This document shows, piece after piece, positions 42,688 through 53,607 of a DNA stretch of 64,000 bases. The number at the start of each line of letters is the position of its first letter. Position 1 is the stretch's first letter. The notes under the pieces were generated by a model. It saw nothing but the letters and a program-made list of their open reading frames with translations. It was not told the DNA's origin and made no database searches. Position numbers and translations under genes: made by a program. The stretch is from the IMG/VR virus record IMGVR_UViG_2563366974_000010, one strand, 5' to 3'. The DNA is from a virus (lineage: Duplodnaviria > Heunggongvirae > Uroviricota > Caudoviricetes).

Positions 42688-42711
42688 TGGTCATCAAATG
42701 ACCAGTTTTTT
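42687..42711 (+). terminator. ompW intrinsic terminator (also encodes last codons of integrase on opposite strand)
   Basis: CTGGTCAT-caa-ATGACCAG then T6. Confidence 0.6.
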
Positions 42712-43824
42712 CCATTCCTTACCGCGTGCGTCGTTGTAAATATCGGTCATTTTTTGATTCGAATGGCCCAGCAAAATTTTGGTATCAACCCCCTGCTCTC
42801 TGAACAATCGCTCTGATAAAGATCTCTGCTCATGGAAAGAGGGTGGGGTGCCATTAGCACGCCAGTTGTAATCCACAGAATCCCGGGCTTTTTTAAATGC
42901 AACGGTTAATGTTGCTGGCTTAACCATCCCGCCGCGCTTAGCTGTCCCTTTCGCGTGATGGTGGTGCAATAGCCACGGACTAAGAACGCAATCGCGGCAG
43001 GATGACACCACATCATCTAGGGTGAGATTTAATTTATCGCAACGCAGAGCCAGAGGGATGGCAATCCGGGTTCCTGTTTTTTGCTGTTCGACATGAAGAT
43101 AACCATCCCGGATATCCGAAAATTGCATTTTGCAAATATCTGAAAGGCGCTGGCCTGTCATCAGTGCCAGCAGCATACCGCGCTGTAAAAAGTAACCATC
43201 CTTTTCCGCTGCGTTATAAATCATCATCCACTCATCAAAAGTCAGTCGCTGTCTTGATATCCGCACCTGCGGTTTTTTTGCCGATTCTGCAGGGTTAAAG
43301 CCTGGCGGGACATCGCCCGTTTGCTGAGCTTCCCGGAAAACATCGATCAGTACTTTCCTGAAAATTTGTCCCATTCTGTTATGTCCTCTGGCCTTGTACT
43401 CTTCCAGTACTGATACCACATCTTTTACGGTTATGGCATCTAACGGTCTGGTGCCAAAACGTTCATCAAATACCCTGAGAGGGGCCGCTTTCTGTTTCAG
43501 CGTGTTGAGTTTGATCTCGCCGTTTTCATATCTTTCCTGTTGAATTTTTCTGTAATTATTCAGAAAAATGGTAACGGTTGATGAACCGCCGGTGTCACTA
43601 ATAATTTTCTCCTGCAGACTGAGCATTTGTTCCATTTGCTGCCGGGCAAGACGGCTGTTCGCTTCTGCTGCAATAGTTTCTGCCAGTTTCTGGTCAATAC
43701 TGCCGAGACCGTGATTTTTGCCTGTTATGGGATGCCTGTAACGCCAGTAAACTTTGTTATTTCTTTTGTCAAAATACGGAGATAATCCCGGAACATCGGT
43801 TTTATATTTTCGCGGGCGCGCCAT
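42694..43824 (-). CDS. int: Tyrosine recombinase / phage integrase
   Basis: 376 aa; C-terminal catalytic-domain character (HELRHT-like region, LLGHSNQKMTDIY); adjacent to att-like junction. Confidence 0.85.
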   Translation of the reverse strand: MARPRKYKTDVPGLSPYFDKRNNKVYWRYRHPITGKNHGLGSIDQKLAETIAAEANSRLARQQMEQMLSLQEKIISDTGGSSTVTIFLNNYRKIQQERYENGEIKLNTLKQKAAPLRVFDERFGTRPLDAITVKDVVSVLEEYKARGHNRMGQIFRKVLIDVFREAQQTGDVPPGFNPAESAKKPQVRISRQRLTFDEWMMIYNAAEKDGYFLQRGMLLALMTGQRLSDICKMQFSDIRDGYLHVEQQKTGTRIAIPLALRCDKLNLTLDDVVSSCRDCVLSPWLLHHHHAKGTAKRGGMVKPATLTVAFKKARDSVDYNWRANGTPPSFHEQRSLSERLFREQGVDTKILLGHSNQKMTDIYNDARGKEWKKLVI

Positions 43825-48449: not shown

Positions 48450-49088
48450 TTAAATATTTTGTTGAATTTTAAAGCATACGCCCAATATGCAAGATAGATC
48501 ATCCAGCATAATTGAAGGGTAGCGAGGATTCGTGGGGACTAAAAGAATATCCGGCCCTTCTATCTCCAGTTTACGAATGACAGGTGTTGTGGTCCCTTTG
48601 GGTAAGGCAAGGACAATATTTCCTGGTTGTACGGTTCGATCGGGATCAACAAAAACTGTTGAACCATTTGGGATGGAAACTCCCCCACCAGATGTTGACA
48701 TACTGTCACTCTCTAGAACAACTGCAAAGGTATTGGCCGGGATTTCTCCGACAAGCTGCACACAAGAGGTTATTGAGGAATTTTTCATATAATCACTCCA
48801 GCTTGCTGCCTGCTGAAGTGATAGTAGCGGAACCGTTTTTATCGGCGGTAAAGATAGATCAAGCGAATCACCTGTATTTAACTCTCCTCCATTAAGAAGC
48901 CAATTTTCGTTTACTTTCAATATTTTTGCCAGTGAACTTATGTAACGCGAGGACGGCGCTCCTCCACCGTTCATCCATTGACTTACGGAGCCTTTTGATG
49001 CGCCAGTGGCATTGACAAGGTCTTTGCCTTTCAGGTTTAGCGCATGCATACGTTGGGTTATGCGTTCAGATATTGTTTGCTTGTTCAT
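48450..49088 (-). CDS. CI-like prophage repressor (HTH + S24 peptidase domain)
   Basis: HTH LKGKDLVNATGASKGSVSQWMNG; ESDSM and VIRKL motifs. Confidence 0.8.
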   Translation of the reverse strand: MNKQTISERITQRMHALNLKGKDLVNATGASKGSVSQWMNGGGAPSSRYISSLAKILKVNENWLLNGGELNTGDSLDLSLPPIKTVPLLSLQQAASWSDYMKNSSITSCVQLVGEIPANTFAVVLESDSMSTSGGGVSIPNGSTVFVDPDRTVQPGNIVLALPKGTTTPVIRKLEIEGPDILLVPTNPRYPSIMLDDLSCILGVCFKIQQNI

Positions 49089-49121: not shown

Positions 49122-49150
49122 TTGACTTTCTTTGGTTTTGATTATTAAAC
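49122..49150 (+). promoter_or_regulatory. PR-like promoter with GTTTTG(A/T)TT direct repeats
   Basis: -35 TTGACT (49122-49127); -10 candidates around 49143-49150; three GTTTTGxTT repeats in the divergent intergenic region. Confidence 0.4.
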
Positions 49151-49179
49151 TTTTGGCGTTCAGTTTTATGGAGCGACTC

Positions 49180-49422
49180 ATGAAAAAATCAGAAGTATTA
49201 GGCTATTTTGGCGGAGTTGTTAAAACAGCCGCAGCTCTAGGAACGTCAAAAACCACAGTCAGCATGTGGGGGGAAGAGGTTCCGTGGAAATGGGCGTTGC
49301 TAATTCAGGCAGTCACTGCCGGGGCGCTCAAATATGAGTTACACATACCGACGGTTGTCATTCCCGGTTCTGATCATAATCCGCCTTCTAACCAAGGGGG
49401 GATTCATGAAAATCAAGCATGA
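49180..49422 (+). CDS. Cro/YdaS-like HTH protein
   Basis: Small HTH-like protein divergent from repressor. Confidence 0.6.
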   Translation: MKKSEVLGYFGGVVKTAAALGTSKTTVSMWGEEVPWKWALLIQAVTAGALKYELHIPTVVIPGSDHNPPSNQGGIHENQA

Positions 49423-49831
49423 ACACATCCGCATGGCGATGAATGCCTGGGCGCGTCCTGATGGCGAAAAAGTTCCGGCAGCTGGAATAACCCAGGCTTA
49501 TTTTGAGTTGGGTATGACGTTTCCTGAACTGTACGACGACAGCCATCCGGAAGCCCTGGCTCGCAATACCCAGAAAATTTTCCGCTGGATAGAGAAAGAC
49601 ACCCCTGATGCAGTTGAAAAAATTCAGGCGTTGTTACCAGCGATCGAAAAGGCAATGCCACCTTTGCTGGTGGCCAGAATGCGCAGCCACAGTTCAGCTT
49701 ATTTTCGGGAGCTGGTGGAGACGCGGGAGCGACTGGTGAGAGACGCTGATGATTTTGTCGCAGTGGCAATCGCCGGTTTCAATCAGATGAACCGTGGTGG
49801 CCCGGCAGGAAATGCTGTGGCAGTACATTGA
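49406..49831 (+). CDS. YdaT-like protein
   Basis: N-terminus MKIKHEHI... recognised as YdaT-type; GGGG RBS; overlaps upstream gene. Confidence 0.65.
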   Translation: MKIKHEHIRMAMNAWARPDGEKVPAAGITQAYFELGMTFPELYDDSHPEALARNTQKIFRWIEKDTPDAVEKIQALLPAIEKAMPPLLVARMRSHSSAYFRELVETRERLVRDADDFVAVAIAGFNQMNRGGPAGNAVAVH

Positions 49832-49896: not shown

Positions 49897-50973
49897 GTGA
49901 GTATGGCTAACGCCTGGCTCAGATTATGGCATGACATGCCAAATGACCCTAAGTGGCGAACAATTGCCAGGGTGTCAGGGCAGCCAATTGCAACAGTGAT
50001 GGCAGTGTATATCCACCTCCTGGTGAGCGCGTCACGAAATGTCACGCGAGGTCACATTGATGTCACGACAGAAGATTTGGCAAGTGCGCTCGACGTGACA
50101 GAAGAGGTAATTGATTCAATTTTGCAGACGATGCAGGGGCGGGTACTTGATGGTGATTTAATCACTGGATGGGAAAAACGCCAGGTGCTTAAAGAGGACA
50201 ACGGCAATATTTCGCAAACCGCAAAATCTCCTGCAGAGCGCAAGAGGGCGCAGCGAGAGAGGGAAAGAAAGCGGGAACAAAATGGCGATTGTCACGGCGC
50301 GTCACGAAATGTCACGCACATGTCACGACGAGTCACGACAGATAAAGATACAGATAAAGATACAGATCAAGAAGATCAAAACACTATGGTCCATGGCGTA
50401 AAAAACGCCACGAACCAGGCAGGGGATGTTCAGACCGTCAATCTTGGTCAGCCAGCAGGCACGACACCGGAAGCCGATTCAGCGTATGCGCTGAAAGCCG
50501 ATTCGGGCGCTGTGCAGCAGGTGATGACCGCAAGGCCGGAGCAATCACACCAACTGCAGCAGCCCGAAGCCGATTCCGCCATTCAGCGGGAAGCCGATCG
50601 GGTAGTCCCGGAAAACACCGGGCAGTCTGTGGGACGAGTGGATTATCCGGATGTGTTCGAACAGGTCTGGCGGGAGTACCCGTTGCGTGCCGGAGCAAAC
50701 CCGAAGAAATCCGCTTTCAGTGCCTGGAAGGCCAGATTACGCGAGGGGGTGCCACCAGAGGCCATGCTGGATGGCGTGAGGCGTTACGCAAGATACTTGG
50801 CGGCTACCGGGAAAACGGGAACGGAATTTGTTCAGCGAGCGACGACGTTTTTTGGACCGGACCGGAATTTTGAGAACCCCTGGTTGCTCCCGGTAAGCGG
50901 CACGAACAACCAGCGTTGTGTGAATCATATTTCTGAACCGGATAACGAAATTCCGCCGGGCTTCAGGGGGTAA
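49897..50973 (+). CDS. Replication initiator, YdaU-like (DUF1376), with in-gene iterons
   Basis: Position after ydaS/ydaT-like genes; phased iterons inside gene. Confidence 0.55.
   Translation: MSMANAWLRLWHDMPNDPKWRTIARVSGQPIATVMAVYIHLLVSASRNVTRGHIDVTTEDLASALDVTEEVIDSILQTMQGRVLDGDLITGWEKRQVLKEDNGNISQTAKSPAERKRAQRERERKREQNGDCHGASRNVTHMSRRVTTDKDTDKDTDQEDQNTMVHGVKNATNQAGDVQTVNLGQPAGTTPEADSAYALKADSGAVQQVMTARPEQSHQLQQPEADSAIQREADRVVPENTGQSVGRVDYPDVFEQVWREYPLRAGANPKKSAFSAWKARLREGVPPEAMLDGVRRYARYLAATGKTGTEFVQRATTFFGPDRNFENPWLLPVSGTNNQRCVNHISEPDNEIPPGFRG
50031..50385 (+). repeat. Origin-like iterons: GTCACG copies at 10-11 bp spacing in two clusters plus tandem GATAAAGATACAGAT AT-rich tract
   Basis: Copies at 50031, 50041, 50051, 50062 and 50291, 50301, 50311, 50322, 50332; AT-rich repeat 50341-50385. 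Confidence 0.55.
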
Positions 50974-51013: not shown

Positions 51014-51436
51014 GTGGCAAAAGTTTTTACACAAGAAGAGCGGGAAAAAATTAAAGGACAGGTTGTTGAACTCGTACGCCAGAGTGGGCGTGAGACGTTA
51101 CGGCAACTGGAAGTCAAGACAGGTGCGACAAGATATCTGATGAGCGTTCTCGCAAGAGAGCTGGTTGCCAGCGGCGATGTATGCAACTCTGGTTACGGGT
51201 TATTCCCGTCTGAACAGGCGCGTAAGGACTGGCAAAATGCCAGTAAAAAGCTCTCAAGGGCAAAGCTGAAGAAACCATCTGCGGTTGATCCGGACCTTAT
51301 CTGGTCATTACCTGACGGAGAAATACGTCGCTACGACAGGCGTCAGAACATAATCTGTCGCGAGTGCCGGAAGAGTGAAGTTATGCAGCGCATATTGTCG
51401 TTTTATCAGGGTGATGTTCGGTATTTATTGAAGTGA
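51014..51436 (+). CDS. Hypothetical protein (140 aa)
   Basis: AGGAGGG RBS, GTG start. Confidence 0.45.
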   Translation: MAKVFTQEEREKIKGQVVELVRQSGRETLRQLEVKTGATRYLMSVLARELVASGDVCNSGYGLFPSEQARKDWQNASKKLSRAKLKKPSAVDPDLIWSLPDGEIRRYDRRQNIICRECRKSEVMQRILSFYQGDVRYLLK

Positions 51437-51503
51437 CGAGATTAAAGTGCATTAGTTCAGATGCAAATTGACATTTTGTGGCACAGGGTAGAGCTAGCGT
51501 GGT

Positions 51504-51529
51504 TGTCCGCTTTGTGCCAATAGCGGACA
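51504..51529. promoter_or_regulatory. Perfect inverted repeat TGTCCGCT-N10-AGCGGACA upstream of AT-rich cassette
   Basis: 8-bp arms, 10-bp spacer, about 40 nt upstream of gene 1 start. Confidence 0.4.
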
Positions 51530-51567
51530 TTGCTGGCTCATGGTATGTTAGTTTAAGGAGGCAGGTT

Positions 51568-52590
51568 ATGCCCTGTATTTCGCTGTGGTATAATAGTTGC
51601 GCAATTGATACAAGGGAGCGTTACATCGTGAAAATTGTTTTCGAGGTTAATGGAAAGAAAGTTCCACTAAAATCTTTAAAATACATAAGCAAAAAAGATC
51701 AACTCGAAGTAATGAAAAACTGGTTCTTTGAAAACTTTGAAGATCCGGCAAATGCTTGTCCGTATGAAAGTAGAGAAGGTGGCTATGCTTACATATATGG
51801 CGGGCCGTATGATGCGAGCGAAGAACTACAATCCATCTTCGGTCAATATGTTAAATCTGAGTATATTGAGGAATTAGTAGATGAATTACAAACACAATGT
51901 TTTGACTGGTCTGGAAACTCAAATAATATAGATGATTGGTACGATGATGATATCTACGACGCTGTAACGTCTTCCGGTAATCCGTATTTAAAATTCATTG
52001 ATAATATCGATAAAATAAAAAAACTTGCAAAAGATAAAACTGAACAACAGCAAAAAAACCACTTGCTTAGTTTGCTCTACACGAATGTTATTACAGCTTT
52101 GGAAACGCTTTATGTTGAGCTATTCATTAATTCTATAGAGAAAGATGATGTCTACATAGCCAATTGTATAGAAAAAGGTAAGACTGAATTTAAAGTAAGC
52201 AAAGATATTGCTGCGTTGCCTTTCAAGGGTGAACCCATCGAGAAAATTAGGGGAGAGCTAATCAGGTCAATCAAGGAACAGTTGATCAGTGCAAGCTGGC
52301 ATAGCACTAAAAAGGTAATCGACCGCTATGAAGCTACATTCGATATAAAAGTACAAAAAGACTGTCCGATAGAAGCTATTGAATTGGCAACCCTCAATCG
52401 AAATCACTTAGTGCATCGTGGTGGAAAGGATAAAGAAGGGAACCTCGTAGTGATTACAGACCAGGATCTTGAAACGCTGATTGAAAATGCATCGAACCTG
52501 GCAATTATGCTCTACAACAGTTTAAATGTAGCAACGAATAAAACCACCATTTTGCAACCAGATGACAAACCGTTCATTCATGAATTTTAA
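51568..52590 (+). CDS. Hypothetical protein (340 aa), AT-rich cassette gene 1; possible HEPN-like RNxxxH motif
   Basis: AAGGAGG RBS 7 nt upstream of ATG 51568; much lower GC than flanking prophage; C-terminal LNRNHLVHRGG fits Rx4H. Confidence 0.55.
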   Translation: MPCISLWYNSCAIDTRERYIVKIVFEVNGKKVPLKSLKYISKKDQLEVMKNWFFENFEDPANACPYESREGGYAYIYGGPYDASEELQSIFGQYVKSEYIEELVDELQTQCFDWSGNSNNIDDWYDDDIYDAVTSSGNPYLKFIDNIDKIKKLAKDKTEQQQKNHLLSLLYTNVITALETLYVELFINSIEKDDVYIANCIEKGKTEFKVSKDIAALPFKGEPIEKIRGELIRSIKEQLISASWHSTKKVIDRYEATFDIKVQKDCPIEAIELATLNRNHLVHRGGKDKEGNLVVITDQDLETLIENASNLAIMLYNSLNVATNKTTILQPDDKPFIHEF

Positions 52591-52605: not shown

Positions 52606-53607
52606 ATGGATATTCGCACACGAAAGACAAAATTTTTAGAGTCGTTAGATTCAACTGAAGTGATACGCAAAGCAGTAAGTCTCGCTATAGATTGCATTAT
52701 TGATAATCATAATAGTAATGAAGATACCCCCTTAGTTATTACCAGCTATGATGATCTCTGTAGAATCCAGGTGCTAAATTATGTACAGGAGTTTTGCGAA
52801 GCTGCATTCCCTGATATGGATGAATATTACTTTAGTCCTAACATACTTCGCATCAACGGCAAGACTAGTGAAGAAGCTTGTATTAACTTAATTAAACTCT
52901 TAAGAAGTACAAAAGGCATGCTATTCTGGTCCGATGCCCCATCGTGGTTCGCTAGCCTCCCCGACGGATTATTCCATGTTGTTAACATTGATCAAAAAAT
53001 CGTTACTCGCGGCCTTAATAAGAAAAACTCTAAGCCGACAATAATCAATAAAGATTACAGTGTAGATACACTACTATCAGAGCTATTTTTGAATGGCGCA
53101 CACATGGAGCAACCCAACGTACACAACGTTTCTGAGGGAAACATGAAGTTCTATGATGAATGCCATGCTGGATTAATCAGACCAATACCCGCTCCAATAG
53201 GCGCGTCATACGATGAAGAGATCACAATTAATTCTCCAGATTGGCAAAAGCTCGCGTGTGTAGCTTTACGCCGCTATCAGTCGAAGGAATGTCATGACGG
53301 AATGCAATGGGATACAACCGATCATGGTTGGACTGATGTAATCGCGTATCCATTCGTCGAAGAAATACAATCAATGGATAATAGTGGTTATCGACAATGT
53401 TTAGTTGGGCTGGTCACAATAAACAATTCAAATGCAAATTCTCCGTACCTATCTACCGTTTGGATACATCCATTTTATCGCAGGAGAGGGTTATTAAGTA
53501 AGTTATGGCCAAAATTACAAGAGTTATATGGAAGTAACTTCGAAATTGAGCGACCTAATGAAAATATGAAAGCATTTCTGAAAAGTGCGAAACACGCAGA
53601 TTACTAA
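52606..53607 (+). CDS. Hypothetical protein (333 aa), AT-rich cassette gene 2; C-terminal GNAT-like segment
   Basis: C-terminal VWIHPFYRRRGLLSKLWPKL resembles acetyltransferase motif A; N-terminal 230 aa unassigned. Confidence 0.55.
   Translation: MDIRTRKTKFLESLDSTEVIRKAVSLAIDCIIDNHNSNEDTPLVITSYDDLCRIQVLNYVQEFCEAAFPDMDEYYFSPNILRINGKTSEEACINLIKLLRSTKGMLFWSDAPSWFASLPDGLFHVVNIDQKIVTRGLNKKNSKPTIINKDYSVDTLLSELFLNGAHMEQPNVHNVSEGNMKFYDECHAGLIRPIPAPIGASYDEEITINSPDWQKLACVALRRYQSKECHDGMQWDTTDHGWTDVIAYPFVEEIQSMDNSGYRQCLVGLVTINNSNANSPYLSTVWIHPFYRRRGLLSKLWPKLQELYGSNFEIERPNENMKAFLKSAKHADY

Follow-up and report, generated by a model that had tools for sequence, protein, structure and literature searches.

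In phage lambda and the Stx phages, the replication origin ori-lambda lies in the middle of gene O, where the O-some is formed (PMC7466680). Similarly, oriL of phage SPP1, with directly repeated sequences plus an AT-rich DNA-unwinding element, lies inside gene 38 and is bound by its own initiator (PMC6316719), and the Rep boxes of plasmid pSK41 lie inside rep, the origin encoding a linker of the protein (PMC5703833; Rep PDB 4pta). We analysed a stretch of 64,000 nucleotides (nt) from a Caudoviricetes virus, IMG/VR record IMGVR_UViG_2563366974_000010 (the window), in which the gene for a phage replisome organizer contains two clusters of helically phased GTCACG hexamers and an adjoining AT-rich tract. 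We propose, with a probability of roughly 0.8 and judging from the sequence and its homologues, that this element is the vegetative phage origin of a lambdoid prophage, placed inside its own initiator gene, and that the hexamers are the sites of the initiator.

The plus strand of the gene contains eight exact direct copies of GTCACG, three in cluster 1 (50031, 50041 and 50062) and five in cluster 2 (50291, 50301, 50311, 50322 and 50332), and the gap in cluster 1 is filled by the one-mismatch copy GTCACA (50051-50056). The spacings are thus 10/10/11 base pairs (bp) in cluster 1 and 10/10/11/10 bp in cluster 2, in agreement with the 10-11 bp given in an earlier note on this DNA, which had been made from its letters alone. 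The same note had placed nine copies in the two clusters; the count of nine holds, but the ninth exact copy, at 50094, is inverted (CGTGAC on the plus strand) and lies just outside the two clusters. In the whole window, GTCACG occurs 39 times on the two strands (30 ± 5 in shuffles), and nine of these 39 copies are packed into 307 bp (Poisson P ~6.5e-13), while neither another cluster nor any pair of copies spaced by 10-11 bp was found elsewhere in the 64 kb. With four and five copies, respectively, the clusters show the generic trait of iteron origins, at least three regularly spaced direct repeats of one short sequence, in the form of non-palindromic 6-7-bp cores at 10-11 bp. Furthermore, the hexamer copies fall into codon phases 3, 1 and 2 and yield the different peptides (A)SR, VT and GH, and this use of all three phases indicates that the repeat resides in the DNA and not in the peptide. 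Indeed, the repeated SRNVT peptide pointed out in the earlier note, which occurs as ASRNVT at amino acids (aa) 43-48 and 133-138, arises from a 19-nt exact DNA repeat, GCGTCACGAAATGTCACGC.

The second generic trait, an AT-rich element next to the repeats, is found directly beside cluster 2, where the coding strand from 50338 to 50385 is 71% A+T and 71% purine, as compared with 46% and 58% for the gene; the GC minimum of the gene is the 40-nt window from 50342 (25% GC). Tandem AT-rich repeats had been noted here earlier, and they are present, although their unit is 12 nt rather than 15 (2.9 copies at 50338-50372, 95% matches). Two GATC (Dam) sites, at 50365-50368 and 50374-50377, lie within this presumed DNA-unwinding element. 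Past the tract, an imperfect palindrome (Table 1) folds as single-stranded DNA (ssDNA) with -8.7 kcal/mol (z = -2.9). A hairpin is possible at the same place in the relatives with this C-terminal module (L003-L006, L149-L152), and L151 carries at least one apparent compensatory change (GTTC/GAAC versus GTCC/GGAC). The palindrome may be part of the origin; it travels with one C-terminal module, and its conservation may stem from coding.

Several of these properties are those of ori-lambda. In a lambdoid phage, the element takes up the middle of the initiator gene, downstream of cro/cII and in a region that early-right transcription should cross. Its iteron block borders on an AT-rich tract without a gap, the linker between a presumed DNA-binding N-terminal domain (N-domain) and a C-terminal domain that would recruit the helicase is encoded by the iteron region, and the number of iterons varies between phages, thereby altering the length of the protein. 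In lambda, as in the window, a palindrome follows the AT tract. However, the N-domain of the initiator is not detectably related to that of lambda O, since the N-domain alone gave no Phage_rep_O match even at E<=10, and the window carries 6-7-bp cores once per helical turn instead of 19-bp palindromic iterons. It also has a second cluster 260 bp upstream, in the region encoding the N-domain, and a DnaT-like C-terminus, with no P gene among the scanned open reading frames (ORFs). As in SPP1, whose G38P we take as a functional analogue, repeats and AT tract lie inside the initiator gene. Unlike the Gram-positive replisome organizers of PF09681, the homologues belong to proteobacterial hosts, the Pfam score is below the cutoff, and the accompanying loader, where there is one, is of the DnaC or lambda-P type instead of G39P/G40P. 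The locus shares with pSK41 the repeats within the initiator gene and the origin-encoded linker, whereas the RepA_N initiator of that Firmicutes plasmid shows no detectable sequence relation, uses four Rep boxes in one cluster, and binds DnaG primase through its C-terminal domain. The element differs from these embedded origins in its short cores once per turn and in its two clusters, one of them within the DNA-binding domain's own coding sequence. It further differs in the tract, which is of a conserved AGATAA type instead of simply AT-rich, and in the DnaT-like C-terminus without a phage loader among the ORFs examined. The design of an origin inside its initiator gene is already known from lambda, SPP1 and pSK41, and the present variant of it reads as new; a literature search, with the review of Weigel and Seitz (2006) outside its reach, returned no paper on this initiator family or its origin.

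We then compared 58 homologous genes, from 4 metagenome loci and 54 loci of one-genome-per-species GTDB contigs, which span the alpha-, beta- and gamma-proteobacteria (Enterobacterales, Pseudomonas, Bordetella, Acidovorax, Chromobacterium, Sphingomonas and others). As the core of each gene we took the hexamer that recurred most frequently at 10-11 bp; the set is dereplicated by species and uncorrected for phylogeny. The two-cluster layout, with at least two copies of one core at both nt ~130-160 and nt ~360-430, was found in 48 of the 58 genes; in these 48, the clusters contain 2-6 copies (median 4) and are separated by a median of 227 bp. Adjacent spacings of 10 or 11 bp make up 206 of 263 across the homologues, and the cluster-1 hexamers stand at nt 129/139/149/160 in species from Aquitalea to Pseudomonas. 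Three core classes were distinguished: GTCAC(G), with 26 genes, (C)GAACGC, with 14, and GTAACG(C), with 8. Within a gene, the two clusters always share one dominant core, and only rarely does a copy belong to a different class. An Erwinia gene, L111, has a GTAACG-type backbone (versus L004/L108/L112) and carries GTCACG nearly throughout both clusters, with one GTAACG kept in cluster 1, as though its iteron class had recently been switched in concert.

The synonymous sites point in the same direction. Among 21 GTCAC-class genes from different species, the entropy of four-fold-degenerate third positions is 0.14 bit inside the hexamers, the inverted copy included, and 1.69 bit outside them in the N-domain (Mann-Whitney p = 8.6e-5), while codon R49, in the spacer that separates two hexamers, varies freely (1.73 bit). 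The inverted hexamer itself recurs at nt 192 in many GTCAC-class homologues, with G as the synonymous third base of Val65 in 18 of 18. Moreover, nearly all homologues carry a tract after the last iteron, [C/T]AGATAAAGAT, AGATACAGAT or AGAGAAGAG, or AGAGAAGAGGAG in GC-rich hosts, with median values of 0.69 for A+T (gene 0.44) and 0.75 for purine (gene 0.57); in many of them it ends in AAAGATCTAAAA. In the close E. coli copies, obtained by a protein-based scan of IMG/VR that gave near-identical E. coli copies only, substitutions fall mostly in the spacers, and four loci have one extra 12-nt unit. Purifying selection is thus seen at the DNA level, and the aligned sequences argue that it acts on the sequence of the repeats, on their phasing and on their position beside the A-rich tract. 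The claim of the earlier note that an origin of iterons plus unwinding element is embedded in the initiator's coding sequence is accordingly supported by the conserved layout, by the concerted switching of cores, by the use of the hexamer in three frames and by the near-invariant synonymous sites.

Some homologues depart from this picture in ways worth recording. P0019, a variant of 302 aa present on 4 contigs, one of them of 5.1 Mb, lacks aa ~136-189, corresponding to ~50314-50475 of the window, and with them the palindrome, the entire AT tract and most of cluster 2, and probably represents a prophage copy whose origin is dead. In further variants of the initiator, the EADS-rich linker is of different length. 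An element of the form CCCCC(C)-N4-6-CCCCC, encoding PPLxPP, follows the A-rich tract in L091, L092, L094, L098, L100, L102, L108 and L112 and at L007:4630-4660, all of them homologues with other C-terminal modules, YdaU included.

The predicted structure of the initiator was examined for the places that the repeats encode. In the AlphaFold model, cluster 1 encodes the loop connecting H1 and H2 of a winged helix (aa 43-55), which has a predicted local distance difference test score (pLDDT) below 50 at aa 47-52 in the full-length model and varies in length among the homologues, and the first part of a disordered linker (aa 128-244, pLDDT <50) is specified by cluster 2 together with the A-rich tract. 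Both clusters thus appear, according to the model, to fall where the protein tolerates them. When the full-length model was compared with the PDB by Foldseek, no significant match was obtained (all E>1), the model being too disordered, and a model of the N-domain only gave clear winged-helix matches. The whole protein had no match in Pfam or NCBIfam beyond its DnaT tail, and a profile of the N-domain had none among the PDB sequences. Nevertheless, the N-domain aligned end to end with PF09681 Phage_rep_org_N (residues 5-123 against 1-119 of 121) at a score of 16.5 bits (E 0.0085), below the cutoff of 23.3; 2 of 31 homologues reached E<0.01 with this family, and weak PHROG matches to the 'replisome organizer' families 4880 and 5968 were also found. 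The N-domain therefore looks, at the sequence level, distantly replisome-organizer-like. Ahead of the linker, a basic helix is predicted at aa 110-126/127, in which R113, R118 and R120 are invariant.

The name 'YdaU-like', given to the initiator in the earlier note, did not survive. The protein has no match to DUF1376 (PF07120), to which K-12 YdaU itself matches with E 2.7e-26, and a BLASTP comparison with YdaU found only the last 19 residues and the TDKDTDKD linker in common. Still, the Rac prophage of E. coli K-12 offers a parallel, since ydaU occupies the same genome position after cro-like and ydaT genes and encodes the same tail, PDSAIPPGFRG, and a linker with the same AATAAAGATACAGATAAAGATC tract, preceded by repeats of its own (GTGTTCAA). 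On the other hand, the N-domain of YdaU is DUF1376, and its next gene is the DnaC-like ydaV, whereas the window has DUF977. In ydaU, the repeats GATGTTCAA / GGTGTTCAA followed by AATAAAGATACAGATAAAGATC occupy L007:4505-4625, which is a candidate position for the Rac origin.

A number of points weigh against the proposed origin or some part of it. The support for firing, binding and unwinding is all comparative and computational. No recognisable two-cluster pattern is present in 10 of the 58 homologues, 3 of which have cluster 2 only, so that cluster 1 may have an accessory role. The cluster-1 loop always includes a conserved (E/T)RG peptide, even in the homologues without repeats, and the conservation of cluster 1 may be partly at the protein level. 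The AT tract is only ~48 bp long and encodes a D/K/T-rich peptide, so that low-complexity coding could contribute to it. Finally, residues 114/117 of the basic helix are K/Q with GTCAC, V/Y with GTAAC and A/W with GAACG, which makes them possible specificity determinants outside the winged helix on the alignment, but this co-variation is confounded by phylogeny and has one exception, L111.

Could the repeats instead be control sites, bound by the initiator or in a repressor-like manner, acting as an autoregulatory roadblock within the gene, in handcuffing, or in titration like P1 incA, with the true origin elsewhere in the prophage? Plasmids have control iterons apart from their origin iterons (P1 incA/incC), and the two clusters in the window are separated, with cluster 1 standing away from the AT tract and missing in the three homologues that keep cluster 2. 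However, cluster 2 always abuts an AT/purine-rich tract, which is the defining arrangement of an origin, no second GTCACG cluster exists in the 64 kb, and phage Tritos shows neither a further annotated replication gene nor an obvious origin module. We thus consider control sites as the sole function unlikely, while cluster 1 could take a control role without conflict with the origin that we propose. It is quite improbable, in our judgement, that the repeats and the AGATAA tract serve chiefly as recombination joints, short conserved sequences at the border of the exchangeable N- and C-terminal modules, promoting lambdoid mosaicism. The same N-domain, iterons and tract do occur in combination with numerous C-terminal halves, this AT tract and tail recur after N-domains that are unrelated, YdaU's among them, and the copy number of the 12-nt unit is variable. 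Such joints, however, leave unexplained the 10-11 bp phasing, the second cluster 260 bp upstream in the N-domain, the concerted switching of class, and the synonymous sites frozen within the hexamers and not between them; any service as joints may be incidental to the conservation of an origin core.

Another protein might also bind the sites, either a host factor or a neighbouring phage product such as that of the YdaT/CII-like or DUF977 gene; YdaT-like and DUF977 genes often accompany the module. This we hold to be highly improbable, because the neighbours vary (DnaC-like, lambda-P-like, DUF977) while the repeat class follows the lineage of the initiator N-domain over three proteobacterial classes, and residues 114 and 117 of the initiator co-vary with that class. 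The remaining alternative, a coding repeat or slippage-derived low complexity in a tolerant loop and linker, without any role at the DNA level, can appeal to the position of both clusters in poorly structured segments and to the simple peptide TDKDTDKDTD encoded by the tract, but is scarcely credible. The three reading frames yield different peptides (SR, VT, GH), the synonymous sites of the hexamers are near-invariant across species with ~60% identical proteins, and the positions of the repeats are kept from alpha- to gamma-proteobacteria.

For the proposed origin we infer the following course of initiation. The N-terminal winged helix, possibly aided by the basic helix at aa 110-127, would recognise GTCACG, and, since the sites recur once per helical turn, the initiators would line up on one face of the DNA. 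Two arrays would thus be formed, on four copies plus the inverted one (50031-50099) and on five copies (50291-50337), which are ~230-260 bp apart and could be bridged by looping. The array beside the A/purine-rich tract would strain and open 50338-50385, and rightward transcription may assist the opening, because early transcription crosses the origin. The DnaT-like domain and the tail would finally bring the host DnaB-DnaC, for replication to start here.

The C-terminal part of the protein consists of a confident helical domain (residues 245-332; pLDDT ~81-86 for most of aa 250-300) and a tail, and the last ~20 residues (VNHISEPDNEIPPGFRG) are a near-copy of the DnaT C-terminus (..V.ISEPDxxIPPGFRG). 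With phmmer, the tail matched the PDB DnaT chains 6aep, 2ru8 and 9zbt_D at E 0.0028-0.068, and hhalign aligned the family alignment A2 with residues 107-179 of E. coli DnaT over 71 columns at a probability of 94%. The protein is not a DnaT orthologue, as NCBIfam NF002770 scored 19.2 bits against a cutoff of 201, with the match limited to residues 333-356. Unlike DnaT, it is encoded by a phage, and a winged-helix N-domain, presumed to be sequence-specific, replaces the N-terminal domain of DnaT.

We also examined which helicase loaders accompany this tail. In the homologue set, PGF(R/T)G-type tails occur with DnaC/IstB-type loaders in 10 loci and with lambda-P-type loaders in none, whereas with other tails the loader is of the DnaC type in 2 loci and of the lambda-P type in 7, these seven being acidic 'LDxxDW'-type tails (Fisher p = 7e-4, relatedness ignored; loci include L003-L006, L089, L092, L093, L111, L112, L115, L126, L141 and L149-L152). 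Consistently, 80 loci (L154-L233) examined from a scan of IMG/VR for the tail have at least nine unrelated N-domains, and in them the next gene is DnaC-like or directly DUF977/YdaW and is P-like in 0 of 80; the same initiator was seen both with and without a DnaC-like gene. We infer that the DnaT-type tail addresses loaders of the DnaC family and that the window phage uses the host DnaB-DnaC; the pairing suggests that the DnaT tail itself is a docking peptide for the DnaC family. Some of these tail-bearing initiators with unrelated N-domains (L155, L172, L201/L225, L173 and L161) have repeats of their own, in two clusters with 11-bp spacing and ~230-280 bp apart. These are AAGGGGCTT at nt 296, 307 / 552, 563, 574, AAAGGGT at nt 284, 295 / 516, 527, and GTCCGCA at nt 55, 66 / 334, 345, followed by a purine tract; the L173 family has lambda-like palindromic iterons. 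The two-cluster design seems to be recurrent.

On ssDNA, the C-terminal domain of DnaT forms a filament, and the protein probably recruits DnaB/DnaC (PMC13377028), while a 2024 paper describes the link from the preprimosome to DnaB-DnaC as not demonstrated (PMC11087952); the DnaT papers examined state no role for the extreme C-terminal tail. We tentatively suggest, as a possibility that we rate somewhat below even, that the initiator is an origin-specific DnaT, in which the winged helix reads the phased hexamers, the DnaT-like domain filaments on the A/purine strand, and the tail docks loaders of the DnaC family. If this is true, DnaB-DnaC of the host would be loaded without a phage loader, and the DnaT tail would be the missing physical link from the PriA-PriB-DnaT preprimosome to DnaB-DnaC, a question that this two-component phage system would make directly testable.

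Table 1. Features of the initiator locus, with positions in the 64-kb window
Feature	Position	Strand	Basis or content
cI-like repressor	48450-49088	-	Pfam and PHROG matches
Promoter-like site	49122-49151	+	Consensus match only
Cro	49180-49422	+	Pfam and PHROG matches
YdaT/CII-like gene	49334-49831	+	Pfam and PHROG matches
Initiator gene ('phage replisome organizer', 356 aa)	49903..50973	+	ORF list, PHROG 3729
Iteron cluster 1	50031..50067	+	GTCACG x3 plus GTCACA at 50051; encodes aa 43-55 (ASRNVTRGHIDVT)
Inverted hexamer	50094..50099	-	32 bp past cluster 1
Coding region of basic helix, aa 110-127 (PAERKRAQRERERKREQ)	50230..50283	+	Predicted helix 110-126/127; candidate second DNA-contact element
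Iteron cluster 2	50291..50337	+	Five GTCACG; encodes aa 130-145 of the disordered linker; abuts the AT tract
Presumed DNA-unwinding element	50338..50385	+	(ACAGATAAAGAT)x2.9, then CAAGAAGATCAAAACAC
Imperfect palindrome	50387..50417	.	TGGTCCATGGCGT-AAAAA-ACGCCACGAACCA; directly past the AT tract; 13-bp stem
C-terminal helical domain and tail, aa 245-356	50635..50970	+	DnaT-like; tail ...VNHISEPDNEIPPGFRG at 50914-50970

The initiator gene starts at ATG 49903, with GAGG 7 nt upstream, whereas the mechanically called ORF begins at GTG 49897; the homologues have N-termini beginning with MANxWLRLWHDM. The protein matches PHROG 3729, 'replication initiation protein', over its full length (E 5e-258), and is named 'phage replisome organizer' by NCBI and labelled 'hypothetical protein' by RefSeq in E. 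coli genomes. Genes 98-100% identical to it are present in deposited phage genomes (Tritos, Evi, vB_Eco...), and in the complete genome of Tritos the gene, 98.8% identical, is the sole annotated replication gene. Classical replication models were found in none of the 25 phage records that carry this N-domain. A match to the gene was detected in 2,699 of 5,426 complete E. coli genomes, with at least 80% of its length covered in 1,647.

The left end of the prophage is marked by an integrase gene (42694-43824) beside ompW, and the gene order is integrase, exonuclease, cI-like, cro, YdaT/CII-like, initiator, DUF977, two cargo genes, DUF968, RusA and Q; early rightward transcription should traverse the origin. 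None of the ORFs scanned in this part of the prophage codes for a helicase, primase or helicase loader, those scanned from the initiator to Q include no P-like or DnaC-like gene, and the downstream neighbour of the initiator is DUF977, not a partner of the lambda P type. A scan of the 64 kb for DnaA boxes gave 4 matches, which is the chance level, none of them in or beside the element and the nearest at 51025; for an origin of the lambda type, this lack of DnaA boxes is neutral. Two genes (51478-52590 and 52606-53607), which separate the replication module from the DUF968/RusA/Q region, have only weak Pfam hints, of HEPN/RES N-terminal domain 1 and GNAT acetyltransferase, and strain CE0007a, with an otherwise identical module, has an ATP-binding protein and a cytosine methyltransferase at this place, which looks like a variable slot for cargo or defence.

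A defined origin would turn this very common class of prophages into a testable replicon, for induction and marker-frequency studies, for incompatibility and for the building of vectors. With its three core classes, the family would be a clean case from nature in which initiator and sites change their specificity jointly, and the element would show a DNA signal written into the loop of the domain that presumably reads it. Furthermore, the strict pairing of the DnaT-like C-terminus with a DnaC-type loader or with none may bear on how DnaT recruits DnaB-DnaC in the replication restart of E. coli.

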